DNA from: an uncultured Chloroflexia bacterium
GTDB taxonomy: Bacteria > Chloroflexota > Dehalococcoidia > DSTF01 > JALHUB01
Direction of reading: 5' to 3'
DNA length: 64,000 nucleotides
Assembly (NCBI GenBank): GCA_963703345.1
Contig: OY969814.1
Location: 1,728,001 to 1,792,000 of the forward strand
The notes beneath the pieces are model-generated. The model ran no database searches. It was given only the letters and a program-made list of their open reading frames with translations, and was not told the DNA's origin. Every line of letters starts with the position of its first letter. The first letter of the stretch is position 1. The position numbers and the translations under genes are program-made. Positions 9,642 through 53,104 of the stretch are shown piece by piece.

Positions 9642-11210
9642 ATGTGGCATCCTAAGAGCGTCAGAATCATCGTTATCCCGATAGCGGCGTTGGCCGTCGG
9701 CCTCGCCCTGTGCGCGGCGACGTTAGTGATCGCCCTGGGAGTGCGCCCAGCGGCGGCAGGGCCGAACGCCAACCCGGGCGCGCCCAACCCGGGCCACGTC
9801 TGGACCGAAATCGAAGGCCACGGCATAGACTCAGCAGGCTGGTGGCTGGGCACGATCGCCAGCAATGCCCTGGAGCTGCGGGTGAACGGTGTCCGCGCCC
9901 TGCGCCTGGAACCCAACGCCACCAGCCCCAACGTCATCGGGGGCTACAGCGGGAATAGCGTTACTGCGGGCGCCTACGGGGCCACCATCAGCGGCGGCGG
10001 CTCCTCAGGCGCCGCGAATCAGGCGGAAGTCAACTACGCTACCGTCGGCGGGGGCCAGGCCAACACCGCCAGCGGTGGCTACGCCACCGTGCCTGGGGGC
10101 GTCAGCAACACGGCCGGCGGTTTCGCCGCCACCGTCGGCGGGGGCTATATCAACGCGGCCAGGAATGACTACTCCACCGTCGGCGGGGGCCATTCCAACA
10201 CGGCCAGCGGCAGCGACGCCACCATCGGCGGGGGCGCGGGCAACGGGGCCAGCGGCACCGACGCCACCATCGGCGGGGGCGATATCAACACGGCCGGAGA
10301 CGTCGCCGCCACCGTCGGCGGGGGCGAATCCAACACCGCCAACGGTGTCTTGGCCACCGTCGGCGGGGGCTATGCCAACACCGCCAGCAGCCAGGACGCC
10401 ACCGTCGGCGGGGGGCATTCCAACACGGCCAGCGGCGGGTTGGCGACCGTCGGCGGGGGCTATAGCAACATGGCCTCAGGCACCGAGGCCACCGTCGGCG
10501 GGGGCGTTAGCAACACGGCCAGCGGTAACCAGGCCACCGTGCCTGGGGGCTCGGCCAACACCGCGGCGGGAAACTACAGCTTCGCGGCGGGGTACAGAGC
10601 GCAAGCCAACCATCCGGGAGCGTTCGTCTGGGCGGATTCCACCGGCTCCTTCTTCCCGTCGTCGGCGGCTAACATGTTCCAGGTGCGCGCTTCGGGCGGC
10701 TACGGTTTCTACACCGACCCGTCCGCAACCACAGGCGTGTATTTGCTCGGTGGCAGTGGGTCCTGGTCGTCGTTCAGCAGCCGGGACGTGAAGGAGAACT
10801 TCACGCCGGTGGACGGCCAGGAGGTGCTGGCCAGCCTGGCCAACGTCCCCGTCTCTACCTGGAACTACAAGGCCCAGGACGCCTCGATCCGCCACATGGG
10901 GCCGGTAGCGCAGGACTTCTCCGCCGCCTTCGGCCTGGGCGAGAGCGACACGGGCATCAGCACCGTGGACGCCGACGGCGTGGCCATGGCGGGCATCCAG
11001 GGGCTGTACCAGCTCTCCCAGGAGCAGGCCAGCCGCATCCAGACGCTGGAGGCGCAGGTGACGGCGCTGGAAGGGGCAAACGGGACGAACAACAGCGCAT
11101 CGGCTGGACTGTTCTCCTCCGGCCTGAGCATCGGCTGGCTGCCTATCGGTGGACTGCTGCTGGCGGGCTTGGTCCTGGTACAGCGCCGCCGCGCGGGAGG
11201 CAAGCGATGA
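9642..11210 (+). CDS. Secreted Gly-rich repeat protein with Peptidase_S74 intramolecular chaperone and C-terminal TM anchor (copy 1)
   Basis: Signal peptide; 12 x 15-aa ATVGGGxxNTAxxxx repeats; FSSRDVKENF...WNYK...HMGPVAQDF S74 signature; coiled coil; TM + RRR; AAAGGAGG RBS. Confidence 0.85.
   Translation: MWHPKSVRIIVIPIAALAVGLALCAATLVIALGVRPAAAGPNANPGAPNPGHVWTEIEGHGIDSAGWWLGTIASNALELRVNGVRALRLEPNATSPNVIGGYSGNSVTAGAYGATISGGGSSGAANQAEVNYATVGGGQANTASGGYATVPGGVSNTAGGFAATVGGGYINAARNDYSTVGGGHSNTASGSDATIGGGAGNGASGTDATIGGGDINTAGDVAATVGGGESNTANGVLATVGGGYANTASSQDATVGGGHSNTASGGLATVGGGYSNMASGTEATVGGGVSNTASGNQATVPGGSANTAAGNYSFAAGYRAQANHPGAFVWADSTGSFFPSSAANMFQVRASGGYGFYTDPSATTGVYLLGGSGSWSSFSSRDVKENFTPVDGQEVLASLANVPVSTWNYKAQDASIRHMGPVAQDFSAAFGLGESDTGISTVDADGVAMAGIQGLYQLSQEQASRIQTLEAQVTALEGANGTNNSASAGLFSSGLSIGWLPIGGLLLAGLVLVQRRRAGGKR
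10038..10577 (+). repeat. Twelve 45-bp intragenic tandem repeats (core gccaccgtcggcgggggc)
   Basis: Read directly in DNA and protein. Confidence 0.85.
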
Positions 11211-11342
11211 GACGAGCAGCAGTATTCGCGGCCCTGCTCCTCGCTGTGCTGGCGGGCGCGTTCCGCCGCTTCCGTTCGCCGTATTCTCATCTTCGTTTCG
11301 TCGGCCGGCAAGAGCAGGAACTAGCACAAAGGAGGTATCACC

Positions 11343-12887
11343 ATGTGGCAGCCTAAGAGCGTCAGAGTCATCGTCATCACGGTAGCGGCGTTGGTCGTCG
11401 GTCTCGCCCTGTGCGCGGCGACGTTAGTCATCGCCCTGGGGGTGCGCCCAGCGGCGGCAGGACCGAACGCCAACCCGGGCGCGCCCAACCCGGGCCACCT
11501 ATGGACCGAAATCGAAGGTCACGGCACAGACGCGGCGGGCTGGTGGCTGGGCACGATCGCCAGCAATGCCCTGGAGCTGCGGGTGAACGGCGCCCGCGCC
11601 CTGCGCCTGGAGCCAAATGCCTTCGGCCCCAACGTCATCGGGGGCTACAACGGGAATAGCGTTACTGCGGGCGCCTACGGTGCCGCCATCGGCGGCGGTG
11701 GGACGAGCGGCAATACCAACCGCGTGACCGACGACTACGGCACGGTGGGAGGGGGCGTAAACAACCAGGCAGGCGACAACGGGGGCGGCGTCGGAAACTG
11801 CCCCGGCACCACCGTCGCCGGGGGCCAAAGCAACCAGGCCAGCAACATGTACTCCACCGTCGGCGGGGGCGAGAGCAACGCGGCCAGCGGTGGCTTCGCC
11901 ACCGTCGGCGGGGGCTGGGGCAACCACGCCCAGGGCGGGGACGCCACCGTCGCCGGGGGCCAAAGCAACCAGGCCAGCAACGTGTTCGACACCGTCGGCG
12001 GGGGCGAGACCAACACGGCCAGCGGTGGCTACGCCACCGTCGGCGGGGGCTGGCAGAACTGGGCCAGCGGCAGCGCCTCCACCGTCGGCGGGGGCTACGG
12101 AGACCGGGCCCCAGGCATCCAGGCCACGGTCGGCGGAGGCTACGGCAACAACGCCGGCGGTGCCTACGCCACCGTGCCGGGGGGCCGGAGCAACGCCGCG
12201 TCGGGAGACTACAGCTTCGCGGCGGGGTTCCAAGCGCAAGCCAACACTGCGGGAGATTTCGTCTGGGCGGATTCCACCGGCGCAGTTTTAGCCTCAAATT
12301 ACTCTGACCAGTTCTTGGTGCGCGCTTCGGGCGGCACCACCTTCTACTCCACCGCTGCCGCAGACGTAGGCGTGGCATTGTACTCTGGCGACGGCTCCTG
12401 GTCGTCGTTCAGCAGCCGGGACGTGAAGGACAACTTCACGCCGGTGGACGGCCAGCAGGTGCTGGCCAGCCTGGCCAACGTCCCCATCACCACCTGGAAC
12501 TACAAGGCCCAGGACGCCTCGATCCGCCATATGGGGCCCATGGCCCAGGATCTCTCCGCCGCCTTCGGCCTCGGTGAGGACAACCTCCACATCAACACCC
12601 TGGACGCCGACGGCGTGGCCCTGGCCGGCATCCAGGGGCTCTACCAGCTCTCCCAGGAGCAGGCGAGCCGCATCCAGGCCCTGGAGGACGAGAACGCTTC
12701 CCTCAAGCAAGGGCTTGACAGCCTGGAGACGCGGGTGACGGCGCTGGAAGGGGCAAACGGGACGAGCAACAGCGCATCGGCTGGACTGTTCTCCTCCGGC
12801 CTGAGCATCGGCTGGCTGCCTATCGGTGGACTGCTGGTGGCGGGCCTGGTCCTGGTGCAGCGCCGCCGCGCGGGAGGCAAGCGATGA
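11343..12887 (+). CDS. Paralogous secreted Gly-rich repeat / Peptidase_S74 protein (copy 2)
   Basis: N- and C-termini nearly identical to 9642-11210; 9 regular 15-aa repeats (11808-12212); FSSRDVKDNF...HMGPMAQDL. Confidence 0.85.
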   Translation: MWQPKSVRVIVITVAALVVGLALCAATLVIALGVRPAAAGPNANPGAPNPGHLWTEIEGHGTDAAGWWLGTIASNALELRVNGARALRLEPNAFGPNVIGGYNGNSVTAGAYGAAIGGGGTSGNTNRVTDDYGTVGGGVNNQAGDNGGGVGNCPGTTVAGGQSNQASNMYSTVGGGESNAASGGFATVGGGWGNHAQGGDATVAGGQSNQASNVFDTVGGGETNTASGGYATVGGGWQNWASGSASTVGGGYGDRAPGIQATVGGGYGNNAGGAYATVPGGRSNAASGDYSFAAGFQAQANTAGDFVWADSTGAVLASNYSDQFLVRASGGTTFYSTAAADVGVALYSGDGSWSSFSSRDVKDNFTPVDGQQVLASLANVPITTWNYKAQDASIRHMGPMAQDLSAAFGLGEDNLHINTLDADGVALAGIQGLYQLSQEQASRIQALEDENASLKQGLDSLETRVTALEGANGTSNSASAGLFSSGLSIGWLPIGGLLVAGLVLVQRRRAGGKR

Positions 12888-40211: not shown

Positions 40212-40895
40212 CTAGCCGGCGGCGAGCTTCTGCGTCTCCTGGAGGTAGGTGATGACGGCCAGCACCCGCGGGTGAATCGACGGGTCACGGCTGGAGACGA
40301 CCTGGCTGAAGATGGCGTTGATGTGGTTCTCCACCGATTTCTCTTCCAGCACGAGCGCCCGTCCGATGGCGCCGTTGCTGTAGCCCTTCGCCATCAGGTG
40401 CAGGACGTCCATCTGGCGGGGCGTCAGCCGGCCAAGGCGAGGGCCATGGGCGTCGTTTCGGCCGGAGAGGATGGCGGGATCGAGGACGACGAGTCCGGCG
40501 GCGGCGGCTTCGATGGCGCGCACGAGGCCCGTGGCGTCGGCAAGCGATTGCTTGATGATGTACGACCAGCCGGGCGTGTTCGGCGGCGGGTTCGTCGAGA
40601 GGTACTCGCGGTCGGTCTCGGCGGCGAGGACGACGATGCCTATGTGCGGCCACTCGGTCTTGACGGCGTGTACGGCGGCGAGCGCCTGGGTGTTGCCGTC
40701 GAGGCGGACGTTGACGAGGAGGACGTTGGGCTGGAGCGAGACGCACAGGCCGCGAAGATCGTCCTTGCTCGTCGCGGTGCCTGCGACCTCCATATGCGGC
40801 TGAGTCGACAGGGCCAGGCGGAGCATGTCACGCCAGAGGCCCTCGTCCTCGACGATTAGTAGACGCAGCCTGTCGCCGTTGAGCTGTCCTTGCAT
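40212..40895 (-). CDS. NarL/LuxR-family response regulator with atypical receiver (phospho-Asp replaced by Asn)
   Basis: LLIVEDE...PNVLLVNVRL; LTPRQMDVLHLMAKGYSNGAIGRAL..EKSVENHINAIF HTH. Confidence 0.88.
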   Translation of the reverse strand: MQGQLNGDRLRLLIVEDEGLWRDMLRLALSTQPHMEVAGTATSKDDLRGLCVSLQPNVLLVNVRLDGNTQALAAVHAVKTEWPHIGIVVLAAETDREYLSTNPPPNTPGWSYIIKQSLADATGLVRAIEAAAAGLVVLDPAILSGRNDAHGPRLGRLTPRQMDVLHLMAKGYSNGAIGRALVLEEKSVENHINAIFSQVVSSRDPSIHPRVLAVITYLQETQKLAAG

Positions 40896-41134
40896 GCGCT
40901 CAGACCAGTCTCCTGAAAAGCTTCCTGCCTTCGCGGCAGAGGAATCGACGCCTGCCGTAGGATGTCCTTCCATCGATAGAGCCCGAGTCTGTTATCGGGC
41001 AGAGGACATGTATCTTTAGGGCTAAGGGACCGATTCCGACGTTGAGCCGAAAATCGCTCCTTTTCCCCTAGGCAAGCTCCCTTAAGACGAGCAGTTTCCC
41101 CGGAAACGATTCAGGTTCGTTTGGATTCAGCCGT

Positions 41135-41346
41135 GGGTGCCAGCACCCAGGTCAAATTGGGTACGGGCACCATGCTGTTCTCTCTCAGGGAGGACGAAAA
41201 AACCAGCGGCAAGGAAAAGGATTTCTGGTCCTGAACGCCGCCGGCGCCGTGTCTTCAAGAGATACGACGAATCGGCGAAGGACAGCGGAATCGAGAGTCG
41301 AGACGCTGGCAAACAGGACGCCGTGGCGGACCAGAGAATCCCGCCA
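41135..41346 (+). promoter_or_regulatory. Putative structured 5' leader RNA of the archaellin gene
   Basis: Several nested stems identified by eye (see findings). Confidence 0.45.
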
Positions 41347-41375: not shown

Positions 41376-41963
41376 ATGAAGACATTAATGAGGCTCTTTG
41401 GGAGAGCCACTCACGGGGAGGATGGCATCACCGGCCTGGAGACGGCCATCATCCTGATCGCGTTCGTAGTGGTGGCGACTGTCTTTGCGTTCGTCGTGCT
41501 GAGCACAGGTCTGTTCAGTTCTGAGCGAGGCAAAGAGGCGGTCTACTCCGGACTCGCGAAAACCGAGGGTTCGCTGGAGTTGAGGGGCAGTGTCATCGCC
41601 AACACCGACGGCACGATCGTGGATAATATCGTCTTCGACCTGGCCAACGCGGCCGCCGGCGAGCCCGTCAACCTCGATCCCGCCGCTACGAGCAACAAGA
41701 TGGTCATCGCCTACCGCGACGCCAGTACCAACATCCCCAGCATCGACTGGAGCGTCACCTGGCTGGTGCCAGCAACGCCGGTAGCGAACCAGGGCAACCT
41801 GCTGTCGGAAGGTAAGCTGGCGGAGATAAAAGTCGACGTCACCGCCCAGAACCTGGGGCCCAACCAGCCTTTCGTCATCGAGGTGAAGCCACCGCTCGGC
41901 GGCACGATGGTGATCGCCAGGACCACGCCGGCAGGACTGGACACGGTGGTCGACCTGCACTAG
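41376..41963 (+). CDS. arlB: Archaellin (archaeal flagellin) with class III signal peptide
   Basis: ...GEDG|ITGLETAIILIAFVVVATVFAF: canonical archaellin N-terminus with +5 Glu; C-terminal FVIEVKPPLGG..IARTTP; GGGAGG RBS. Confidence 0.93.
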   Translation: MKTLMRLFGRATHGEDGITGLETAIILIAFVVVATVFAFVVLSTGLFSSERGKEAVYSGLAKTEGSLELRGSVIANTDGTIVDNIVFDLANAAAGEPVNLDPAATSNKMVIAYRDASTNIPSIDWSVTWLVPATPVANQGNLLSEGKLAEIKVDVTAQNLGPNQPFVIEVKPPLGGTMVIARTTPAGLDTVVDLH

Positions 41964-42052
41964 CAAGAGTTCATTGCCGCGAAGGCGGCGCGGCGACGCC
42001 AAAGTGAGGGGTCGCAGCCGGAAAAGCGCCGTCATGGCAGGGAGGCAGAAGC

Positions 42053-42841
42053 ATGGAACTCAACGCAAAGATCGCTTCTCTTGAGGACGAGGTGAAACTC
42101 CTCAAGGGAGAAGTCAAACTAATACTGAGCGAGATCCGCACGGCGATACTTGGCCAGGACAATCCCTTCGCGGAGCCTGGCCAAGGATTGCGTCTGGACC
42201 CGAGCGCTCTCGACTCGCGGCCGCCGATAAAGGTCGTGCGGGTGTCGAACGAGGCGCCTGAGGCCGAAGAGGAAGCCGAGGCGGCCACGGCGCTGCCCGA
42301 GGATGTCTGGGAGAACGAGCCGGAGGAACCGACTCCCATGCCGGAGCCGGTGGCGATGGAGAAGCCGCCGGAAGCGCGGCAGGTGGAGGAACCTCCCCCG
42401 GTCGCGAAACCGGCCATGAGCTACCCGACACCGCCGCCGCTGGTCCCGCCGCCGAAGCCGATCGCCGTTCGTCCGATTGAAGCGGCGGTCGCGCCGAAGC
42501 CGCAGGCGGTGCCGCCTCAGCCGGTCGGAAGGCCGCATTGGAGCCTGATAACGATCGCCGGTCTGGCTGTCTGGGCTGAGGAGGCCATCAAGCAGATCGG
42601 CGTGAAGCGGCTTCGCATTCTCCTGGACCTGTGCGAGTTCACGGGCGATCTCTCCCCGGACGCGAAGGAGGCGCTGCTCAAGGTATCGACTCTGGCGCAC
42701 GCGACGTTGGAGAGGAAGACGCCGCCCTCAACGAACGAGTGCCTGGTAGTGCTCTGCCAGCTCGACGCGCTTCTGCGGGGAGAGCAGCCGGCCAGCCTCA
42801 GTCTGCATGGCCCGGCTGAAAAGTGGCAGCAAACGGCCTAG
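42053..42841 (+). CDS. ArlC/D/E (FlaCDE)-like archaellum accessory protein
   Basis: N-terminal coiled coil ending ...NPF, acidic Pro/Glu linker, C-terminal helical domain (W..EAIKQIG..RLRILLD...GDLS); position between arlB and arlG. Confidence 0.65.
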   Translation: MELNAKIASLEDEVKLLKGEVKLILSEIRTAILGQDNPFAEPGQGLRLDPSALDSRPPIKVVRVSNEAPEAEEEAEAATALPEDVWENEPEEPTPMPEPVAMEKPPEARQVEEPPPVAKPAMSYPTPPPLVPPPKPIAVRPIEAAVAPKPQAVPPQPVGRPHWSLITIAGLAVWAEEAIKQIGVKRLRILLDLCEFTGDLSPDAKEALLKVSTLAHATLERKTPPSTNECLVVLCQLDALLRGEQPASLSLHGPAEKWQQTA

Positions 42842-42894
42842 GAGGGCCAACAGATCCGTCCCCCTAGGATGACGGAGCAAGAGGGGGTGCCGCC

Positions 42895-43371
42895 ATAGAA
42901 AAGGCCATTACCACTATCCTGCTAACCGTGGCGGGAATCGTAGCCGTCGTAGCGGTCGTCAACGCGGTGTTGCCCAGCGTCGACCGGACGAGCGGCGCCC
43001 TGACCTCCACGGCCAGCGTCATCGACGACCGGCTGGGCAGCCAGGTCGAAATCGTCCATGCCACCGGCGAGAACGGCGCTACCGTTGCCGACGTGTGGGC
43101 GAAGAACGTCGGCTCAACCATCATCGACCCGCTGGACAGGATAGACATCTTCTTCGGGCCGGAGGGGCAGTTCGTCCGCATCCCATACGGCGGCGCCAGT
43201 TGCAGCGCGCCTTGCTGGGAGTACAGCCTCGAGAACGACACGAAGTGGAAGCCGACCGCGACGTTGCACATCGTGATCCATCTCGGCGACGCGCTTCAAT
43301 CGAACACTGTCTATTACGCCAAGGTCGTCGCGCCAAACGGGTCGAGCGACGCGAAGTTCTTCACCGTGTAG
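42895..43371 (+). CDS. arlG: Archaellum stator protein ArlG (FlaG); apparent ATA start, first canonical start is GTG 42928
   Basis: N-terminal hydrophobic helix, WAKNVGS motif, archaellin-like beta domain, APNG near C-terminus; arlG-F-H-I-J order. Confidence 0.75.
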   Translation: MEKAITTILLTVAGIVAVVAVVNAVLPSVDRTSGALTSTASVIDDRLGSQVEIVHATGENGATVADVWAKNVGSTIIDPLDRIDIFFGPEGQFVRIPYGGASCSAPCWEYSLENDTKWKPTATLHIVIHLGDALQSNTVYYAKVVAPNGSSDAKFFTV

Positions 43372-43383
43372 GGGCGAGAAGGT

Positions 43384-43890
43384 ATGGAAACGAGCATTCC
43401 CGCCCTTCTCATCGCCGCCATTATGATGATCACCACCGTAGTCATGGCGAGGAGCGGCTACAGCTCCGTCGACCGGTTGGGACAGTCGTGGCAGGGGATG
43501 GAGCAGCGCCTGGAAGAGCGCGTACGGACGCAACTGACGGCGGTGAGCTCGCAGGTGGACAGCAGTCACGCCAACATTACGCTGCAGTTACGCAACGACG
43601 GCCAGACGACGGTGGCGGACTTCGCGCGGATGGACGTGGTGGTGCAGTACCTGTCGGAATCGGGGACGCGCTACGCCCACTGGATACCGTTCACGTCAGG
43701 GGCGCTCCAATCGAACACGTGGCGGGTGGCGTCCATCGCCAACGACACTTTTGAACCGGGCGTCCTGAACCCCGGCGAAATCTTGCAACTGGAGATAAGA
43801 ATCAATCCGCCGATGGGACCCGGCACGAACGGCTGGGTCATTGTATCAACCGAGAACGGCGTCACCGTTTCCGCGGACGTGACAGGATAG
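43384..43890 (+). CDS. arlF: Archaellum stator protein ArlF (FlaF)
   Basis: N-terminal TM, LRNDGQT, LNPGE, STENGV motifs. Confidence 0.75.
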   Translation: METSIPALLIAAIMMITTVVMARSGYSSVDRLGQSWQGMEQRLEERVRTQLTAVSSQVDSSHANITLQLRNDGQTTVADFARMDVVVQYLSESGTRYAHWIPFTSGALQSNTWRVASIANDTFEPGVLNPGEILQLEIRINPPMGPGTNGWVIVSTENGVTVSADVTG

Positions 43891-43901
43891 GAGCCAGAAC
43901 C

Positions 43902-44618
43902 ATGTACCAGGCAGCTTACGGCGAGCCGAGACGGATGGTGGCGACGGGCAACCCGGAGGTGGACAAAAAGATCGGCGGCGGCATACCGGTGGGATCGCTG
44001 TCGCTCATCGAAGGGCAGTCGGACTCCGGCAAGAGCGTGCTCCTGCAGCAGCTTGTCTGGGGCGCGCTATCGGAGAACTTCCGCGTCGCCTACTACACGA
44101 CGGAGAACACTACGCGGAGCCTGCTGCGACAGATGGAGAGCCTGGGGATGAACATCATGGACCACTTTCTCCTGGGCAGGCTCAACATTTACGTCGTGCC
44201 CTCAGCGATGTCGGCGGACGAATCGCTGACGTTCTTCAGCCGGTTGCTGGACCACGTTTCGCGGCAGGCGAGCTACGACATCATCGCTATGGACTCGCTT
44301 ACCTCATACGTGTCGCACGTGCCGGAGCGCGACACGCTGACCTTCTTCAACGCGCTGAAGAAGATCTGCGACGAGAACAAGACCCTGCTGATAACCCTGC
44401 ACGCCTACGCCTTCGACGAATCAATGTTTATCCGCATTCGGTCGATCTGCGACGCCCACCTGCGACTGCGGATCGAGGAGGTGGGCGACCAGCTCGTCAA
44501 GGTTCTGGAAGTTGCCAAGGTGCGCGGCGCCGAGAAGACGACGGGGAACGTCGTCAGCTTCGAGGTCGAGCCCGGCATGGGAATGAGGATAGTGCCGATT
44601 ACAAAAGCAAAAGCCTGA
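43902..44618 (+). CDS. arlH: Archaellum KaiC/RecA-like protein ArlH (FlaH)
   Basis: EVDKKIGGGIP, Walker A GQSDSGKS, YYTTE, MDSLT, FEVEPGMG. Confidence 0.9.
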   Translation: MYQAAYGEPRRMVATGNPEVDKKIGGGIPVGSLSLIEGQSDSGKSVLLQQLVWGALSENFRVAYYTTENTTRSLLRQMESLGMNIMDHFLLGRLNIYVVPSAMSADESLTFFSRLLDHVSRQASYDIIAMDSLTSYVSHVPERDTLTFFNALKKICDENKTLLITLHAYAFDESMFIRIRSICDAHLRLRIEEVGDQLVKVLEVAKVRGAEKTTGNVVSFEVEPGMGMRIVPITKAKA

Positions 44619-44619
44619 T

Positions 44620-46362
44620 ATGCCGAACCTGCTGCCCTTTCCCTGCGAGAACGTCGTCGACGACCACAAGAACGGCGCCGGCGACTGTGCTCTGAAGAAG
44701 CTTGTCTCCAAGGAGCTGCTGGAGCGCGCCGAGGCTTCGCCGCACCTGATGGACTACCTCCACATGGTGCCGATGGCGCTAGTCGGCGTACCCGACTTCT
44801 ATCCAGAGATCAGCCGCAAGCTGGGCGAGCTGGAGCATCCTAATTTGATCTATCCGGTCGGCGACGACATGTTCGTCCACATCTTCCCGGACACGGAAGA
44901 CCCCCGCAACTACTATCTGGCGGTCGAGCCGCCGGTGGGAATGGATGTCGAGGAACTGCTGCGGGAGGTGGAGCGACGGCTGCTGGACTACGTCGACATT
45001 CTGGCGCTGGCCCAGACGGAGGAGGAGAGGGCGCAGGCGCTTTGCGATGCCGTGGAGCAGTGCTGCACGGTAAAGGGCGGCGGGCATGCCGCCAACGGCG
45101 AGAAGAAGCACGGCGGGCACTTCCCCTTCGGCGGCGGCGGCCATGAAGCGCGAGTGCCGGTCACGCAGCGGGAGCTGAACATCATCAAGTATACGATTCT
45201 GCGCGACAAGATAGGCATGGGGGCGCTGGAGCCGCTGATCAAGGACTCGAACATTGAGGACATCAGTTGCAGCGGTATCGGTGCTGTCTTCGTCGAGCAC
45301 AAGATCTTCAAGGGGCTGAAGAGCAGCATTATGTTCCACACGCACGAGGAGCTGGACGACTTTGTGCTGCGTCTGTCGGAGAACATCAGGAAGCCGGTCA
45401 CGTTCAAGAACCCGATCGTGGACGCGGCCCTGAACGACGGCTCCCGTATCAACATCGTCTACGGCGGTGAGGTGTCGAAGCGGGGCAGCAACTTCACCAT
45501 CCGTAAGTTCGCCGAGACGCCGATCAGCATAGTCGACCTCATCAACTTCGGCGCCCTCGATCACAAGATGGCGGCCTACCTGGCGATCATCGTCGGCGAT
45601 GGGCTCAACCTGTGGGTCTCCGGCGAGACGGCGTCCGGCAAGACAACGCTGCTCAATGCGATAACGACCTTCATTCGCCCGGACGCCAAGATCGTGACGA
45701 TTGAGGACACGCCGGAGCTGCAGGTGCCACACAAGAACTGGATCCGCGAAGTCGTGCGCATGTCCGGCGACACGACGCAGGGCGCCTCCGTCGACATGTT
45801 CGGCCTGCTCAAGGCGGCTCTGCGGCAGCGGCCCAACGCCATCCTCGTCGGCGAGATCCGCGGCGAGGAGGGCGCCGTCGCCTTCCAGGCGAAGCAGACG
45901 GGCCACCAGGTGATGTCGACATTCCACGCCTCGACCGTCGAGAAGCTGATCCAGCGTGTCACCGGCAACCCGATCAACGTGCCCAAGCCCTACATCGACA
46001 ACCTCAACGTCGTGGTGATCTGCAGCGCCGTCCGGCTGCCGTCCGGGAAGCTGGGGAGGCGCATCCTGAGCATCAACGAAATTATTGGCTATGACCTGTC
46101 GTCGGACTCGTTCTCCTTTGTCGAAGCGTTCCGCTGGAATCCGGCAGACGACGTGTTCGAGTTCACGGGCAACATGAACAGCTACCTGCTGGAGAACCGC
46201 GTGGCGCCGCGGCGCGGACTAACGCCGAAGGACAAGCGTAAGATCTACCTGGAGCTAGATAAGAAGGCGGCGATTCTAGAGAAGCTGCAGCAACAGGGTA
46301 TCGTGAACTTCTATGATCTCTATCAACTCCTTGCTAAGGCGCAACGCGAAGGACTCTTCTAG
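44620..46362 (+). CDS. arlI: Archaellum motor ATPase ArlI (FlaI)
   Basis: IEDISCSG, GSRINIVY, FTIRKF, GETASGKTT, IEDTPE, LRQRP..ILVGEIRG, TGH..STFHA. Confidence 0.92.
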   Translation: MPNLLPFPCENVVDDHKNGAGDCALKKLVSKELLERAEASPHLMDYLHMVPMALVGVPDFYPEISRKLGELEHPNLIYPVGDDMFVHIFPDTEDPRNYYLAVEPPVGMDVEELLREVERRLLDYVDILALAQTEEERAQALCDAVEQCCTVKGGGHAANGEKKHGGHFPFGGGGHEARVPVTQRELNIIKYTILRDKIGMGALEPLIKDSNIEDISCSGIGAVFVEHKIFKGLKSSIMFHTHEELDDFVLRLSENIRKPVTFKNPIVDAALNDGSRINIVYGGEVSKRGSNFTIRKFAETPISIVDLINFGALDHKMAAYLAIIVGDGLNLWVSGETASGKTTLLNAITTFIRPDAKIVTIEDTPELQVPHKNWIREVVRMSGDTTQGASVDMFGLLKAALRQRPNAILVGEIRGEEGAVAFQAKQTGHQVMSTFHASTVEKLIQRVTGNPINVPKPYIDNLNVVVICSAVRLPSGKLGRRILSINEIIGYDLSSDSFSFVEAFRWNPADDVFEFTGNMNSYLLENRVAPRRGLTPKDKRKIYLELDKKAAILEKLQQQGIVNFYDLYQLLAKAQREGLF

Positions 46363-47869
46363 CGAGGTCGCGAAGGAGCGCGACAAGCTAGATAAGCCGG
46401 CCCGTTTTTTCGGTCGGCAGCCCCTGGCGTTCGACCTAGTGACGCAGCTCACCTACATGTCCGCCATTGCGACGGCTGGTATCTCGCGCGCGCAGCTCTT
46501 CGAGCACACCGCCAACCTCAGCTACAGCACGTCGGTCCTGTTCCGCCGCATTCACTGGGCAGCGCAGCGACTGAACTACGACTACGCGCAGGCCTGCGAA
46601 GTCGTCGCGGAGACGCTTGCCGACGAGAACATGCGCAGCCTGCTGCTACGCTTCGCCAGCGCCCTCGCTTCCGGCGAAGGCGAGGCGCCCTTCCTGGCGC
46701 GGGAGATGGAGGTGCAGCTCGAACTGTACGGCAAGCAATACGAACGCGACCTGGAGACGCTGCAACGGTGGACGGACGCCTACGTGGCGTTGATGGTGTC
46801 GGCGGCGCTGATCGTGGTCATCTCGCTCGTCTCGATGATGATTTACAGCATGGGCGCCGGCCTCATCGTTGGACTGGCGGTTGTGGTCATCGCGACCACC
46901 TTCATCGGCTCGTATATCGTCTACACGGTGGCGCCACTGGAGGTGAAGGCCTGCACGCTGGCCGAGTTCTCGCACGAACGGCATTTCGCCGCCCTACTCG
47001 CCAGATATGTGCTGCCGGTGGGACTGGCAGCAAGCGCCGGCGTGATGCTATTGGGGTTCGGCATAGCGATAGCGTTCATAACGATGTCGATCTTCCTCCT
47101 GCCGGTGGGCGTGCTGGCGTTCCGCGAGGACTTGCAGATCGACCGGCGGGACCGGGACGTGGCCAGCGTGCTGCGGGCGATGGGCAGCATGGTCGCGGCG
47201 ATGGGCAGCACTGTCAGCGAGGCGCTGACGCGGCTCAACCGCCGCTCTCTCGGCTCGCTGGAGCCGCAGGTGAAGCGACTGCACGTCCGGCTGCGCAACG
47301 GGCTGCGGTCGGACCTGTCGTGGTCACGGTTTGCGGCGGAGTCGGGCAGCGAGATGGTGACTCGCAGCGTGCGCATCTTCTGGGACGGACTGCGGCTGGG
47401 CGGCGACGCGGATCGCATCAGCTACCTGGCGTCGATGCTGGCAATGAAGGTCTCCCTCCTGCGGGCGAGCCGCAAACTGGTGTCTTCGACCTTCACGTTC
47501 ATCATGATCCCACTCCACGTGGCGCTGCTGTCGATCCTGCTGTTCGTGTCACAGGTGCTGGTCATATTCGGGGCGAAGATGATGGAGGTACAGGCCCAGG
47601 GGATGGACACCAGCGTCGCCAATGACGCCAGCGTATCGACGACCTTGCTTTTCAGCGCGCCCAACATGGATTTCGTCCGCTCGTTCATCGTCGCCGTCAT
47701 ACTGGTCTTGACGCTGGCCAACACTTTCGCGCCGTACGCGGCATCGGGAGGTCATCCCTATAAGCTGTGTCTCTATGGCTCCGTCATGTGCTTTTTGTCC
47801 GGCGTGGCGATGCTGGTGATCCCGGCCGTCGTGCAGGCCCTTTTCGCCAGCGTCTCAGCACCGATCTAA
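46313..47869 (+). CDS. arlJ: Archaellum membrane platform protein ArlJ (FlaJ); start uncertain
   Basis: LTYMSAIATAG, LLRFASALASGE, Y...LETLQRWTDAY, multiple TMs, second cytoplasmic domain, GGH near the C-terminus. Confidence 0.88.
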   Translation: MISINSLLRRNAKDSSSEVAKERDKLDKPARFFGRQPLAFDLVTQLTYMSAIATAGISRAQLFEHTANLSYSTSVLFRRIHWAAQRLNYDYAQACEVVAETLADENMRSLLLRFASALASGEGEAPFLAREMEVQLELYGKQYERDLETLQRWTDAYVALMVSAALIVVISLVSMMIYSMGAGLIVGLAVVVIATTFIGSYIVYTVAPLEVKACTLAEFSHERHFAALLARYVLPVGLAASAGVMLLGFGIAIAFITMSIFLLPVGVLAFREDLQIDRRDRDVASVLRAMGSMVAAMGSTVSEALTRLNRRSLGSLEPQVKRLHVRLRNGLRSDLSWSRFAAESGSEMVTRSVRIFWDGLRLGGDADRISYLASMLAMKVSLLRASRKLVSSTFTFIMIPLHVALLSILLFVSQVLVIFGAKMMEVQAQGMDTSVANDASVSTTLLFSAPNMDFVRSFIVAVILVLTLANTFAPYAASGGHPYKLCLYGSVMCFLSGVAMLVIPAVVQALFASVSAPI

Positions 47870-47884: not shown

Positions 47885-48238
47885 ATGAAGCTCATACCAT
47901 TCCTAAGGTTTGGCGGCAGTCACGTCGGAGAGGATGACGTGCCTAACGCGCCCCTGCCCGTCGATCCACTGGAGGCGCCGACGGACGAAGAGCAGGAAGA
48001 GGAAGAGGAAGAGGAAGAAGAGAAGCCGGAGGAGGAGAAGCCGGCGGAAGAGGCGTCGCTTGGCGGCGACGATGACATGCTGAAGATCTTCACGGCGGTG
48101 GACGAGGAGTTCGTGGACAACACCGGCCTCACCTCGGACATGGAGGAGGTATCGGCGGATGACTTGCTCGAGGAGGCACGGGCGCTTGGGCGGGTCCTCG
48201 GCGTGCAAGTTGTCCACGAGGAGGAGCAGGCAGTCTAG
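47885..48238 (+). CDS. Small highly acidic hypothetical protein
   Basis: GGAGG RBS; poly-Glu tract; 15 nt after arlJ. Confidence 0.65.
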   Translation: MKLIPFLRFGGSHVGEDDVPNAPLPVDPLEAPTDEEQEEEEEEEEEKPEEEKPAEEASLGGDDDMLKIFTAVDEEFVDNTGLTSDMEEVSADDLLEEARALGRVLGVQVVHEEEQAV

Positions 48239-48250
48239 CGGGAGGCCTGG

Positions 48251-49249
48251 ATGAACGCCCGCCTTCGCATCGTCGCTCCCTGCTCGCTGGCGATTGCGGT
48301 GAGCCTGGCAGCAGCGTCGGTTGTGGCGGCGCACGAGCGACTGCCGGCAGCGGTGAACGTCTCCCCGCCACAGGAAGTGGCGACATCCACTGTCGCCCCG
48401 CCACCGGAGGCCACTCCGACGCCAACGCTGGGCGACGTCGAGGCAGCGCCCGCGAGTAGCGGCGGAGGCGAACCGCGGTTGTTGCCGGTCCCAGCGGAAG
48501 CGCAACCGTCGACGAACGCGCAGGTGCTGGCGGGCCCCGGCACGCTCCTTCAACAGGCGCCCACGCCGCGACCGCATCGCCCGACCATCGTCCTCGACCC
48601 GGGGCACGGCCGCGGCGACCCGGGAGCGGTGCATCATCTGCCCGACGGCAGCGTGGACCTGACGGAGGCGGAGGCAAACCTGGACATCGCGGAGAAGCTG
48701 CGTCATTTCCTCGAGGCGAAGGGATACGACGTTTACGTGACGCGCTCAGGATTCGGCAAGCCGCTGGCCGCGGGGCCGCTTTCGCAGTCGCTGATCTCGC
48801 GCGACCTGATGGACCGCGTCCGTCTCGCGGCGGCGGTCGACGGCGACGTATTCATATCGATTCACAACAACGGCTCGCCGCATCCGGCGCAGTCGGGCAC
48901 GGAGATATGGTATTGCGGCCAGCATCGATTCGGTACGGAAAGCGCCCGTCTGGCAGAGCTCATCCTCGACGCTGCCGTGCAGGGGCTGAAGGACTACGGC
49001 TATGAGACGGTACGGCGCGGTACGCAGGAGGACTCGACGGTGCATGATTCGCCGGGCTTCTGCCAGTTCCTCGTCACGCGCGAGGTGCAAATGCCGGCGG
49101 TCCTCACGGAAATCCTCTTCCTGACGAATGACGCCGACGCGGCGGTGCTCAAGGACCCGGTGGCGAGAGAGGCGGTCGCGGACCGGGTAGCGCAGGCAAT
49201 CGATACCTTCCTCCGCGAACGAGGCTCCGCGCCTCAGCAGCCCAACTGA
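48251..49249 (+). CDS. Secreted N-acetylmuramoyl-L-alanine amidase (Amidase_3)
   Basis: Signal peptide, Pro/Thr linker, IVLDPGHG, EAEANL, VYVTR, FISIHNN, AVLTEILF Zn-amidase motifs; GGGAGG RBS. Confidence 0.9.
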   Translation: MNARLRIVAPCSLAIAVSLAAASVVAAHERLPAAVNVSPPQEVATSTVAPPPEATPTPTLGDVEAAPASSGGGEPRLLPVPAEAQPSTNAQVLAGPGTLLQQAPTPRPHRPTIVLDPGHGRGDPGAVHHLPDGSVDLTEAEANLDIAEKLRHFLEAKGYDVYVTRSGFGKPLAAGPLSQSLISRDLMDRVRLAAAVDGDVFISIHNNGSPHPAQSGTEIWYCGQHRFGTESARLAELILDAAVQGLKDYGYETVRRGTQEDSTVHDSPGFCQFLVTREVQMPAVLTEILFLTNDADAAVLKDPVAREAVADRVAQAIDTFLRERGSAPQQPN

Positions 49250-49258
49250 CGAAAGGCG

Positions 49259-50335
49259 TTAGTGCGTCAAAGCGATCCGTAGCGGCGCCAGGGGTGTGTC
49301 ATCGACGCCTACGAGGTTGACTTCGTTGACATTCAGGCGCGCGCGATCGAAGAAGATGCCGTAGACGCGTTGACCGGCAGAAGCTCCGCGGTCCCAGGAA
49401 GCGAGGTAAAGCGAAGTGAGGCCCAGGATCCGCGCGCTCCCGTCGTGCGGAGATGAGACGATGGGCACGACGATGAGTCGCCCGACGCCGCCGTCGCCGC
49501 TGCCGCGCACGCATTCAGTGCGAGGCGGTTGGGCGTAGGGATCGAAGCCGGTCACATGTCCGGCGCCTGCTCCTCCATCAGGGGCGAAAGTCACGTCACA
49601 CCACTCGTTGCCGAGGTAGTCGGCCGTTCCGTCCCCTGACTCGAACTGATAGTGGACTATCAAGGCGCGGAGCGTCGCTTGATCGGCTTCGTTGCCGGGC
49701 GGCAGCAGGTGAACGACGTCGCCGGCAGACCAGATGCCGGTCTCTTCCTTTCGGCAACCGGCGGCCACCATCTGCTCGTAGGCGGCAACGCCACCGCCGG
49801 CCAGGTCGAGCGGGACCAGTGTGCCGCCGTCGCCGGAGTGGTCAGCGAGGTTGAAGGAGTAGACGCGTCCGGGCACGAAGCCGAAGTCGTCGCTGCCCTG
49901 CGCTGAGGATGCGGCGACGATGCCGAAGGGACAGACCGGCGCGCCTTTCGCCCCCACGACCTGCGCCGTCGCCGACCTTTCGATGGAAGAAACCCCCGGC
50001 AAGCCGAAGTAGTGCAGGAGCAACGTGCTGTGGTCAACGCGGGCGGTCGCAGTAACGGTATCGAGGATGCCGTCCGGGTGCTGAACAGGGCGCCAGTCGG
50101 CGAAGGTGCAGCATTCGGCGGTGGAGAGGCCGCGTTGGTTGTTCTCCAGCCAGTGATTGGCAGCGGTAAGGGCGTCGGCTTGGCTGCCGTTGATGCTAAG
50201 CTGGCGGGCAGCGGCCGTGGCCATGCCCTCCGCCTCCCACTGCGCCTTGCCGATGCGCGCGAAGTAGATGGCGAGGTCGAACATCAAGGCCGCGATGACG
50301 ACGGTGGCCATGAGCAGGAGAGCACCCTTGACCAT
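49259..50335 (-). CDS. TadG-like (Tad/Flp pilus accessory) protein
   Basis: N-terminus resembles the Tad motif (hydrophobic helix, D, Q..AE..A.AAA); Cys-containing extracellular domain. Confidence 0.55.
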   Translation of the reverse strand: MVKGALLLMATVVIAALMFDLAIYFARIGKAQWEAEGMATAAARQLSINGSQADALTAANHWLENNQRGLSTAECCTFADWRPVQHPDGILDTVTATARVDHSTLLLHYFGLPGVSSIERSATAQVVGAKGAPVCPFGIVAASSAQGSDDFGFVPGRVYSFNLADHSGDGGTLVPLDLAGGGVAAYEQMVAAGCRKEETGIWSAGDVVHLLPPGNEADQATLRALIVHYQFESGDGTADYLGNEWCDVTFAPDGGAGAGHVTGFDPYAQPPRTECVRGSGDGGVGRLIVVPIVSSPHDGSARILGLTSLYLASWDRGASAGQRVYGIFFDRARLNVNEVNLVGVDDTPLAPLRIALTH

Positions 50336-50545: not shown

Positions 50546-53104
50546 ATGCGAGAAAGCGCGGAGGCACGGGACTCGAGCGGAGGCGCGTCATCGGCCCCGG
50601 CGCCGCTGCGCTGGCTGGCGCTGCTGGCGGCGGCAAGCTGGCTGGGCTATCTCATCTGTAGCGGCGTGCCGCAGGTCCAGCCGGAGGTCTTTCGCGCGAC
50701 GATCGCTTTCCAGGCCGTCGCGCTGGCGCCAGCGATTCTCTACGCCGCATACCTTCTCTTCAGACGCCGACTGCCCGGCGGCTCCGGGCTGGACTGGCCG
50801 TTGCTCCTCCTGCTGGCGGCGTACGGCGTCGCGACCGTCGCTTCCATCGCCTGGAGGGTCAGCCTGGAGAGCACGCTCATCTTCCTGCTGGCGATCCTCG
50901 TCTTCTACGCGCTGAGCGACCTCGACCTGCTGGACGCGACCGGCCTGCAGGCGGCGTTCATGCTCGCGGCTTCCGCGGCGGCGGTCTGGGCGTTGTGGAT
51001 CGTCTTCGGCGACTATCGCGATTGGCTGAGCTTCGCGCAGTCAACCTCCGGCGGCTTCCACATCGGCGATCTGATCCCGCCGACGGTACCGAAGGTGCAC
51101 GACGTGAGCGACCACCCGAACATACTGGGCATGACGCTGGTGCTGGCGATGCCCTTCTACGTCCTGGCCGTCTACCGCAGGGCATCCTTGTTGCTGCGCA
51201 TCTTCTGGGGAGTCATGCTCTTCGCGGCGCTCTGGGCCGTCTTCCTCACCCTGTCGCGCGGCGCCTGGATAGGGGCGGCCGTGGCCGTCGCGCTAACAGT
51301 CGCCGGCGTCGGGGCTGTTCGCGGTTCCTGGTCGGTCCAAAAGCTTCGACGGCCTTTCGGGCAGAGACTGCGCGAAAGGCCGTCGCTCGCGGTGGCGGGC
51401 GGCGTCCTGGCGCTGCTCGTCGTCGCCCTGGCGGTCGCGGTGCTCGCGGCGCGCTGGAACGTGCGACCGCAGTGGCTTTTCCGCGAGTCGCTCTCGCCGC
51501 GGCATGACGTGTTCGACGCCGGCGTCAGCATCTTCCGCGACCACCTGCTCTTCGGCGGCGGCCCGGGCACGTTTGCGCTGCTCTATCCCCAGTACAGCGG
51601 CGAGTTCCCGATCCACGCCATCCACGCGCACAACGGCTTCCTGCAGTTGGCCGACGACACGGGCATGGTGGGGCTGGCGGCGCTGGCGGCGCTCCTCGTG
51701 ACGCTGGGCTGGATGATCTGGCGGAGCTATCGCCGCGGGAACGTGGAGCAGCGGCTGCTGGCGGTTACGTGCGCGGCGGCGCTGATCGGTTTCGCCGTGC
51801 ACAATCTCGCCGACGCGGCGAACATCTGGAAGGCGACGCTCGTCGCCGTGGCGGCGGTTACGGCCATCGTCGTAAAGAACTACTGCTCGCTGGCGCCGCG
51901 CGCCGAGGCGAAGGCGATACGCTTGCCTCCCTGGGCCGGTCGCCTGCGCTCGCTGCTGCCGCGCGGCCTGCTGGTGGTCGCCTTCGTCGCCCTGCCGCTC
52001 GTCTGGCTGCGCATTGACGTCGCTCATCGCCACTACTCGCACAGCCTCAGCCAGCTCGGGATGGGACACATCGCGCAGGCGATCAGCGAGGGGCAGCAGG
52101 CGGTGGATGAGGACCCTGATTTCGCGATCTATCAGTTGCAGCTTGGCGTCGCGGAGGGAACGGCCGTGATGCAGGGAGAGTTGACTTCGCCGGAGCCGGC
52201 GATCGCCAGCCTGAAACGAGGGCTGGAGCTCGAGCCGCGAAGCGCCATCGGCTACGCCAACCTGGCGCGGATGTTCGTCGTCGCCGGGCGCAACAGCGAG
52301 GCGCGCGACGCCGCGCTCCAGGCGCGTCGCTACGCCGGCGCCGACGCGACGGTGCTTCTGGCGGCCGCCGGCGTCCTGGAAGACGTGGGCGCGCCGGAGG
52401 CCGTGCCGACCTACGGCATGGCGCTCTCGCGGATGCCGTCGCTTGGTGATTCGCAGTTCTGGCAGGGAAGCGACTTCCGCCGCTCCCACTACAAGGAGAT
52501 CGTCGGGAACTCACTCATCTCACTCAGCCCCTGCGCGACGGGGACGCTTGTTGCGCGGGCCGGCAACGGCGGCTCCCAGGCGACGACGCTGGGGCTCGCG
52601 GAGCTGCGGGACGGCTGCCGCGACGCCGTCGCCGCCGACCCGGCCAGCCTGGACGCGCGCGTCAACCTGGCGGAGATATCGATGGCGCTGAATGACTACC
52701 AGACCGCCTACGACCTGCTGAGCTACGTGACGAGCCGTCAGCCGGACCTGGCGCGGGCGCGCACCGTCATGGGCGAGTGGTACGCAGCGCAAGGCGACGT
52801 CACCCGAGCGCGCGCTGAATGGACGACGGGCGGTCAGCTCGGCGAGGCGGAGTCGCTGCTATTGCTGGGCGATTCGTATCCGGCGAAGCAGGTGCCGCCG
52901 GAGGTCGTGAAGCGTCTAGGCGAACTGGCGCCCGCCGTCGCGGAGGGGCCGCGCGACTATCTGATCGGCTACCTGTACTATCGAATGCGTTTCTCGCGGG
53001 AGTCGTCGCCTATCATACTGCTGCCGGGCGAGTGGCAGGACGCGATCCCGGGCCTGTACGACCGGATACAGCAGGCGCTCGCGCGCTGGCAGCCGGCCGG
53101 CTAG
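50546..53104 (+). CDS. O-antigen ligase (Wzy_C)-like polytopic membrane protein with C-terminal TPR-like region
   Basis: HPNILG, TLSRGAWIG, HLLFGGGPGTF, HAHNGFLQ..DTG..GL; TPR-like helices. Confidence 0.8.
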   Translation: MRESAEARDSSGGASSAPAPLRWLALLAAASWLGYLICSGVPQVQPEVFRATIAFQAVALAPAILYAAYLLFRRRLPGGSGLDWPLLLLLAAYGVATVASIAWRVSLESTLIFLLAILVFYALSDLDLLDATGLQAAFMLAASAAAVWALWIVFGDYRDWLSFAQSTSGGFHIGDLIPPTVPKVHDVSDHPNILGMTLVLAMPFYVLAVYRRASLLLRIFWGVMLFAALWAVFLTLSRGAWIGAAVAVALTVAGVGAVRGSWSVQKLRRPFGQRLRERPSLAVAGGVLALLVVALAVAVLAARWNVRPQWLFRESLSPRHDVFDAGVSIFRDHLLFGGGPGTFALLYPQYSGEFPIHAIHAHNGFLQLADDTGMVGLAALAALLVTLGWMIWRSYRRGNVEQRLLAVTCAAALIGFAVHNLADAANIWKATLVAVAAVTAIVVKNYCSLAPRAEAKAIRLPPWAGRLRSLLPRGLLVVAFVALPLVWLRIDVAHRHYSHSLSQLGMGHIAQAISEGQQAVDEDPDFAIYQLQLGVAEGTAVMQGELTSPEPAIASLKRGLELEPRSAIGYANLARMFVVAGRNSEARDAALQARRYAGADATVLLAAAGVLEDVGAPEAVPTYGMALSRMPSLGDSQFWQGSDFRRSHYKEIVGNSLISLSPCATGTLVARAGNGGSQATTLGLAELRDGCRDAVAADPASLDARVNLAEISMALNDYQTAYDLLSYVTSRQPDLARARTVMGEWYAAQGDVTRARAEWTTGGQLGEAESLLLLGDSYPAKQVPPEVVKRLGELAPAVAEGPRDYLIGYLYYRMRFSRESSPIILLPGEWQDAIPGLYDRIQQALARWQPAG

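Follow-up and report, generated by a model that had tools for sequence, protein, structure and literature searches.

Can a motor of archaeal type be run by a bacterium that keeps a peptidoglycan wall and its own sigma factors, and what would have been added to it on the way? The question is raised by a gene cluster in a 64,000-nucleotide (nt) stretch of a Dehalococcoidia chromosome (OY969814.1, 1,728,001 to 1,792,000; hereafter the window, to which all positions and strands refer), where an earlier note had recognized the core genes of an archaellum, the archaeal-type flagellum. We confirm that positions 41376-47869 hold an intact arl2-type archaellum operon (arlB, an arlCDE-like gene, arlG, arlF, arlH, arlI, and arlJ) and consider it likely, from sequence comparison, that its product is a swimming filament rotated at the expense of ATP, to which this lineage has added a hydrolase that probably opens the wall and a predicted sigma-28/LuxR switch.

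An intact arl2-type archaellum operon

An open reading frame (ORF) check recovered all seven core genes in one orientation where the earlier note had placed them, with two corrections: arlG is started at an ATA at 42895 in place of a GTG at 42928, and the operon, thought to end at 47869, runs on to 49249 with two more genes 3' of arlJ. Its genes are as follows (aa, amino acids).

41376..41963, + strand: arlB, archaellin, 195 aa, class III signal peptide with predicted cleavage at G17/I18
42053..42841, + strand: arlCDE-like protein, 262 aa, with an N-terminal coiled coil that ends in NPF, a Pro/Glu linker, and a helical C-domain
42895..43371, + strand: arlG, stator protein, 158 aa, predicted ATA start after a strong Shine-Dalgarno sequence
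43384..43890, + strand: arlF, stator protein, 168 aa, weak PF22201 match
43902..44618, + strand: arlH, KaiC-like ATP-binding protein, NF052589 and NF004723 above cut-off
44620..46362, + strand: arlI, motor ATPase, with Walker A, Asp box, Walker B, and His box all intact
46313..47869, + strand: arlJ, membrane platform, with its own ATG 50 nt inside arlI
47885..48238, + strand: acidic protein, 117 aa, C-terminal helix motif, no family name, starting 15 bases after arlJ
48251..49249, + strand: N-acetylmuramoyl-L-alanine amidase (Amidase_3), N-terminal signal/anchor and Pro-rich linker, starting twelve bases after the acidic gene

The gene order, earlier called euryarchaeal-like, is better described as the arl2 arrangement, with G before F, as in Archaeoglobus and Sulfolobus and unlike Haloferax or Pyrococcus (PMC12488501). 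In profile searches for archaellum components, which the earlier note had proposed, three proteins pass family cut-offs: ArlB with 80.8 bits on PF01917 (cut-off 29.5) and 26.1 on TIGR02537 (cut-off 20), ArlH with 218.9 on NF052589 (cut-off 215) and 285 on NF004723 (cut-off 194), and ArlI with 648 on NF058587 (cut-off 550). The best PDB match of ArlB, in an alignment that begins at the predicted cleavage site, is 9i5h (E 6.7e-47), presumably the filament of Litorilinea aerophila, and ArlI matches 4ii7 at E 3e-125. ArlJ matches its best family, NF004703, over its whole length (424 bits, E 7.5e-127, below the family cut-off) and has at least six hydrophobic helices. As single sequences ArlG and ArlF stay below the NCBIfam cut-offs (23-25 bits against 110); profiles built from their homologues reach solved FlaG (5tug, E 8.6e-16) and FlaF (4p94, E 1.2e-12), respectively. 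The second ORF is likely, if not proven, to be ArlCDE-like, judging from its position, from homologues that occupy the same slot in Chloroflexota and Methanomicrobia, and from weak PF04659 matches (3 of 42 homologues, best E 0.0017); the names FlaD/FlaE stand on 2 of at least 120 listed homologues, an atlas lead scored 0.86, and its profile matched nothing relevant among PDB sequences. The ArlI residue encoded at 45892-45894 is Lys here, as in 4 of 42 homologues, the other 38 having Met.

Tad and type IVa pili, both encoded elsewhere in this genome, use ATPases of the same superfamily, and a grouping of the window ATPase with Tad or archaeal pilus systems was one outcome that the earlier note had named as refuting its claim. 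ArlI clusters with ArlIs instead: in a quick LG+G4 tree of 123 rows it lies among 119 ArlI rows (support 98), apart from the TadA, PilB, and PilT of its own genome, and a Tad or type IVa identity is rejected by the profile scores as well (TIGR03819, 154 against a cut-off of 373; TIGR02538, 61 against 676). The root of this tree is unreliable, with long outgroups, and we therefore draw no donor or direction from it, taking the archaeal origin from the account in PMC12488501. The closest ArlI proteins are 81-93% identical, in records labelled Dehalococcoidia or Chloroflexia.

A peptidoglycan hydrolase closes the operon

The last operon gene encodes an amidase that scores 131 bits on PF01520 (cut-off 27) and, in alignment to CwlV, has the zinc ligands His, Glu, and His and the catalytic Glu. 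We compared 61 genomes of the same order, this one included (the unpublished G045 enters the 61-genome tallies alone). ArlI is above cut-off in 41 of them, and a hydrolase adjoins the archaellum locus in 41/41 informative genomes, a tally that leaves out G030, whose arlJ part could not be located, and G022, G056, and G059, whose contigs are short or one-sided. Its type varies: 26 genomes have an intact amidase, 10 an M23 peptidase, and 5 a lytic transglycosylase (SLT) with or without M23. The 10 M23 genes carry an amidase-like remnant (seen by eye, with a profile match in 2), and hydrolases outside family f4 share a similar N-terminal anchor.

The association also holds where the operon has been rearranged. 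In family f4, arlHI has split off and the hydrolase remains with arlJ, which lies upstream of it in 12/12 loci, 10 of which were retrieved around the amidase match itself; in family f2 (5 genomes) the hydrolase has been relocated upstream of arlB, and the acidic gene has moved along in 3. In family f5 a full-length hydrolase gene is present in 5/5 ArlI-positive and 0/8 other genomes, some of them incomplete. The wall is encoded throughout much of the order, with murC above cut-off in 54/61 genomes and a full dcw cluster and a transglycosylase in this one. Loss of peptidoglycan as the reason why f2 has no hydrolase after arlJ was rejected, murC being present and the hydrolase lying upstream of arlB. 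We infer, by analogy with flagellar hydrolases, that the enzyme would open the wall locally for the archaellum.

Elsewhere the slot 3' of the acidic gene is filled differently: in some Dehalococcoidia (L006-L008, L017-L021, L025, L042) by a large Ig-fold protein of the IPT/TIG type and in Anaerolineae (L023 and others) by PilD, PilN, and PilO-LysM, making three differing envelope fittings in all.

A divergent regulator, its predicted operator, and sigma-28-type promoters

Upstream of arlB lie a divergent regulator gene and the following candidate control elements.

40212..40895, - strand: NarL/LuxR-type response regulator, divergent from the operon (Pfam Response_reg and GerE)
40992..41018, - strand: sigma-28 (FliA/WhiG)-type promoter TAAA-N15-CCCGATAA, facing the regulator gene
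41135..41172, no strand assigned: palindrome GGGTGC-NN-GCACCC in two copies, 41135-41148 perfect and the second at 41159-41172
41174..41200, + strand: predicted activator-dependent sigma-28-type operon promoter, weak -35 and GACGAAAA as -10

The earlier note had listed sigma70 promoters among the bacterial flanks; a scan of 40.8-50.6 kb found none (1.3 expected), and the conserved promoter there is of the sigma-28 type. That of the regulator has both boxes conserved, with a variable spacer, in 10/11 aligned loci and resembles E. coli FliA sites (PMC4183435). A FliA/WhiG sigma factor is above cut-off in the genome (TIGR02479, 201.8; cut-off 189.6). Two FliA/WhiG-like factors (G000:C1:187234 and 1612232) are encoded in this genome, in which no flagellin was detected, and 5 of its 7 sigma-28-type sites are intergenic, some facing signalling-type genes.

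Regulator and palindrome occur together. An orthologue of the regulator is present in 26/61 genomes, and the palindrome stands 5' of arlB in 19/21 regulator-positive against 0/13 regulator-negative loci (chance expectation about 0.02 per 450 nt); the sole perfect match in this genome is the one at 41135. Sites of NarL-type regulators have a 7-2-7 layout. A second archaellin gene, an orphan 266 kb away (G000:C1:1503351-1503938; L080:8352-8939) whose product is 82% identical to ArlB, carries the same palindrome; orphan copies occur in 12 genomes of the family, with the palindrome 5' of 12/12 of them, against 0/8 copies in regulator-negative genera. At both the operon and the orphan arlB copies a -10-like box, nnCGAnA, follows 21 nt past the palindrome. 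These patterns lead us to predict that the palindromes are the operator of the divergent regulator and that the regulator is the activator of the operon. Where a phospho-acceptor Asp is expected, this regulator has Asn; close relatives do have Asp, and family f4 has Gly.

Sigma-28-type sites also accompany arl genes in other arrangements, which supports the sigma-28 reading independently. The split operon of f4 (L093-L116, L124-L136) has arlHI under its own sigma-28-type promoter, often with a second acidic gene, apart from arlB-CDE-G-F-J-acidic-amidase; a 15-nt-spaced site lies upstream of the split-off arlH in 13/13 loci, 8 of them with at most two mismatches, against 0/19 operon-internal controls. 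Among regulator-negative loci, 7/14 have such a site 5' of an arlB.

A predicted near-cognate start codon for arlG

From the upstream stop to codon 12, arlG has no ATG, GTG, or TTG; its ATA stands six bases past a strong Shine-Dalgarno sequence, in the same alignment column as the ATG of homologues. ATA or ATC occupies the start in 39 of 70 distinct bacterial loci (34/40 in the order, 5/30 outside it), and the six exceptions within the order all belong to one genus. All 39 have a Shine-Dalgarno sequence, 37 have no canonical start upstream, and in 9 no canonical codon occurs as far as codon 12, whereas the same codons start none of 54 arlF, 39 arlCDE-like, and 33 arlI controls. The start type requires at least six changes on an ArlI tree of 55 loci. 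In E. coli such near-cognate codons yield 1-2% of the output of AUG (10.1101/063800), and ArlG is on these grounds likely kept low. Automatic gene calling truncates arlG in genomes of this order.

General use of ATA/ATC starts in the genome was rejected (19/284 and 32/479 behind Shine-Dalgarno sites, against a 6.0% baseline), as was an ATA start for the gene of a PilD N-domain, where those letters end the upstream gene. infC (G000:C1 ~1515946) is apparently ATA-started, and ftsW (~2058791), with a strong Shine-Dalgarno sequence, perhaps so. Farther along the operon, the arlJ start inside arlI is kept in 29/29 loci of the order with arlJ next (7 as TTG) and lost (TAC) in 13/13 where arlJ is not next; translational coupling of arlI and arlJ is therefore likely.

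An acidic protein after arlJ

The gene between arlJ and the amidase belongs to a cluster of 53 related ORFs found directly 3' of arlJ across Chloroflexota, and a similar acidic ORF is present in 10/14 archaeal loci, with a modest profile-profile match (54%, E 1.3e-4). An N-terminal membrane helix is present in some versions, and the C-terminal helix motif is common to all. Searches of Pfam and NCBIfam gave no relevant match and the ESM Atlas no named family, and 224 clusters match its profile at E 1e-10; a predicted complex of ArlI, ArlH, and the acidic protein scored 0.06. Its layout of anchor, linker, and C-terminal motif is one that we take to resemble crenarchaeal ArlX. On conservation and position we predict it to be an eighth motor-associated gene.

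Peptidase, pili, and chemosensing elsewhere in the genome

The genome scan that the earlier note had suggested, for flagellar, pilD, and che genes, did not detect flagellin, CheW, MCP, or CheF and found one prepilin peptidase (A24, C1:1855267; PF01478 57, cut-off 26.5; both Asp motifs) and a PilD N-domain. The PilD of the type IVa locus (C1:1369970) has the N-domain alone in three genera and is full length in two others; its ATG is absent here. The genome has two Tad loci and one for a type IVa pilus, and the demands of these three systems and of the archaellum would all fall on the standalone A24 peptidase. CheW occurs in 9/61 genomes of the order. Neither STT3/AglB nor a PibD-type peptidase (PF06847) was found in the genome. 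At 50546-53104 (+ strand) of the window lies an O-antigen-ligase (Wzy_C) and TPR membrane protein, a candidate O-glycosylating enzyme; the claim that it glycosylates archaellin was dropped because it stands beside the locus in close relatives alone.

How the archaellum may work, and the alternatives

We propose the following roles, those of the peptidase and of the Arl proteins from knowledge of the families. The standalone peptidase would cleave ArlB at G17/I18, and ArlI, ArlJ, and ArlH would assemble and rotate the filament, braced by ArlG and ArlF. A FliA/WhiG sigma factor may transcribe the regulator gene, and the regulator may bind the palindromes and thereby activate the operon as well as the second archaellin gene far from it. 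The amidase would make a local cut in the wall to let filament and stator through, and the ATA start would hold ArlG scarce. As no CheW, MCP, or CheF was found, on/off transcriptional control without chemotactic steering is likely. More broadly, we suggest, with confidence a little short of even, that in this order an archaeal motor has been domesticated flagellum-style: its archaellin and motor genes transcribed through sigma-28 and a LuxR activator with its operator, given a port by a dedicated hydrolase that has been swapped repeatedly, rationed in ArlG by an AUA/AUC start gained and lost at least six times, and equipped with an acidic protein of archaeal origin that would be a missing core part of arl2.

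Several observations count against these proposals. None of 68 loci from outside the order has a comparable hydrolase, so archaella can work there without one; the amidase is the sole PF01520 (Amidase_3) protein of the genome and may for that reason also serve cell separation; and the hydrolase activity of Salmonella FlgJ is described as helpful yet dispensable (PMC13584718). The 7 sigma-28-type matches genome-wide are barely above those in shuffled sequence (1-5), FliA/WhiG is present in 52/61 genomes, including ones without archaella, and no clear sigma-28 promoter is seen at the regulators of f3 and f4. On the ArlI tree the distribution of regulator, palindrome, and hydrolase type for the most part tracks two or three locus lineages, so that the counts represent few independent events. 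In 30 of the 39 ATA/ATC-started arlG genes a canonical codon lies at most 12 codons downstream, and ArlJ falls short of the NF004703 cut-off of 570.

We consider it unlikely that the archaellum is real and swimming and the additions are passengers, the amidase being a housekeeping cell-separation enzyme kept by synteny and the motifs serving other regulators. The lack of a second Amidase_3, the non-independence of the relatives, and the hydrolase-free loci outside the order agree with this, but the slot retains a hydrolase across two changes of chemistry and two rearrangements, no hydrolase was found in ArlI-negative f5 genomes, and the palindrome occurs at two archaellin loci 266 kb apart.

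We think it improbable that the filament serves chiefly for adhesion or undirected dispersal and is no rotating swimming organelle. The missing CheW, MCP, and CheF in a genome of 95.85% completeness, the rarity of CheW in the order, and SAR202 isolates that carry arl operons and in which filaments were not seen, as reported in PMC12488501, point that way; against it, arlF, arlG, and arlH, the genes specific to rotation, are intact and under constraint, the two Tad systems and the type IVa pilus could already serve for adhesion, and L. aerophila swims (PMC12488501) even though no chemosensory system was detected in it (10.64898/2026.05.11.724246).

A chimeric assembly, or a silent and decaying archaeal island, deserves almost no credence and is largely refuted: the genome is metagenome-derived, and in contigs of three sequencing runs none alone covers the locus, but synteny of the two flanks extends to five other assemblies (L001-L004, L041; aspS-hemN-deacetylase-luxR on the left, plus right-hand genes), ArlI is spread across the order, and a contig from another sequencing run joins the regulator to arlB. 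Shared flanks, ArlI in 41 of 61 genomes of the order, codon use, and selection together bear out the old, assimilated transfer that the earlier note had proposed. Guanine-cytosine content of the locus, at 61-64%, is host-like, also as it had suggested, and codon use resembles that of the host, with codon adaptation of the locus genes from the 15th to the 74th percentile of the genome; ratios of nonsynonymous to synonymous substitution rates of 0.05-0.33 for all ten genes (below 0.35, against three relatives) show that they are under purifying selection. The assembly consists of a single 2.28-Mb contig, with contamination of 0.59%. Its bacterial flanks were correctly recognized for tig, clpX, comEC, and aspS, all above NCBIfam cut-offs; clpP is above a subfamily cut-off and below TIGR00493, and the proposed secG had no match at E 1e-12.

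The locus offers testable candidates for wall passage (the operon hydrolase) and for regulation (sigma-28 and LuxR, with an exact operator), and a clear example of how a cross-domain machine is accommodated to an envelope and a transcription system foreign to it. The core system is known; new here, as predicted from sequence, are the wall hydrolase, the sigma-28/LuxR control, and the near-cognate arlG start. A literature search, with subscription papers outside its scope, found no report on these additions or on regulation of an archaellum in any bacterium; locus figures may show the genes unlabelled.

Other features of the window

9642-12884, + strand: two tandem paralogues of 522 and 514 aa with signal-like N-termini, the first without an NCBIfam match
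49259-50335, - strand: 358-aa gene convergent with the amidase, its N-terminus TadG-like by eye, no Pfam or NCBIfam match

An Rfam scan of the 64 kb matched tRNAs only.

Other arl loci

Tandem arlI-arlI occurs in 13 loci, mostly labelled Dehalococcoidales (L012, L013, L014, L016, L022, L027, L035, L036, L037, L045, L054, L072, L075); the 24 copies included in the tree group in a single clade (support 100), with Walker A retained in the copies displayed. Archaeal type IV filament systems are described as keeping a single ATPase (PMC13705601), and the only duplication mentioned in the accessible text of PMC12488501 is of arlF. Assembly and rotation are possibly split between the tandem copies. 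Two genomes (L121, L122) have a second, divergent arlI distant from the main locus, with arlH in L121, and L123 is apparently decaying, with arlF, arlH, and arlI fragmented and no arlB match. The ArlIs of L012, L029, and L071, labelled Desulfobacteraceae, Limnocylindria, and Halobacteria, cluster with Dehalococcoidales, Anaerolineae, and Methanophagales, respectively, reflecting either misbinning or further transfers.

Comparison with known systems

The earlier note had judged the phenomenon rare but not wholly new, rightly so: archaella were published in 2025 for 243 Chloroflexota genomes (PMC12488501), and for the arl2-type archaellum of L. aerophila swimming is demonstrated (PMC12488501; PMC13319060). 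The operon studied here shares with the published archaella the order arlB-arlCDE-arlG-arlF-arlH-arlI-arlJ, a peptidase encoded elsewhere, the lack of flagellin and CheF, and the presence of peptidoglycan genes. It differs in having no PilN/PilO-LysM beside it and a hydrolase in that slot, in a PilD reduced to the N-domain with a separate peptidase domain, and in its divergent LuxR regulator, palindromic operator, sigma-28-type promoters, ATA arlG start, and orphan archaellin. About 200 of 244 genomes are from Chloroflexota that make peptidoglycan but lack PilO/PilN, and how the motor is anchored in these is stated to be unknown (PMC13319060).

The arl2 loci of Methanomicrobia (Methanophagales/ANME-1 and Methanosarcinales) have ArlI proteins 49-54% identical, the same gene order, a homologous arlCDE-like gene, and a similar acidic ORF after arlJ. 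Unlike the bacterial locus, those examined have no wall hydrolase, no palindrome, and a canonical arlG start, and their AglB/STT3 and PibD-type peptidase have no counterpart detected in this bacterium. From Tad the system is set apart by its ATPase, with 648 bits on the ArlI profile, 154 on that of TadA, and a place in the tree outside the TadA, PilB, and PilT of the same genome. The likeness to flagellated bacteria is one of design: as with the FliA regulon, TAAA-N15-GCCGATAA-type promoters stand at motility genes, and as with FlgJ and SltF-like enzymes, a dedicated hydrolase lies in a motility operon. The hydrolases here, however, are of the Amidase_3, M23, or SLT type and are no homologues of FlgJ, and the motor that they accompany is an unrelated, horizontally acquired type IV filament.

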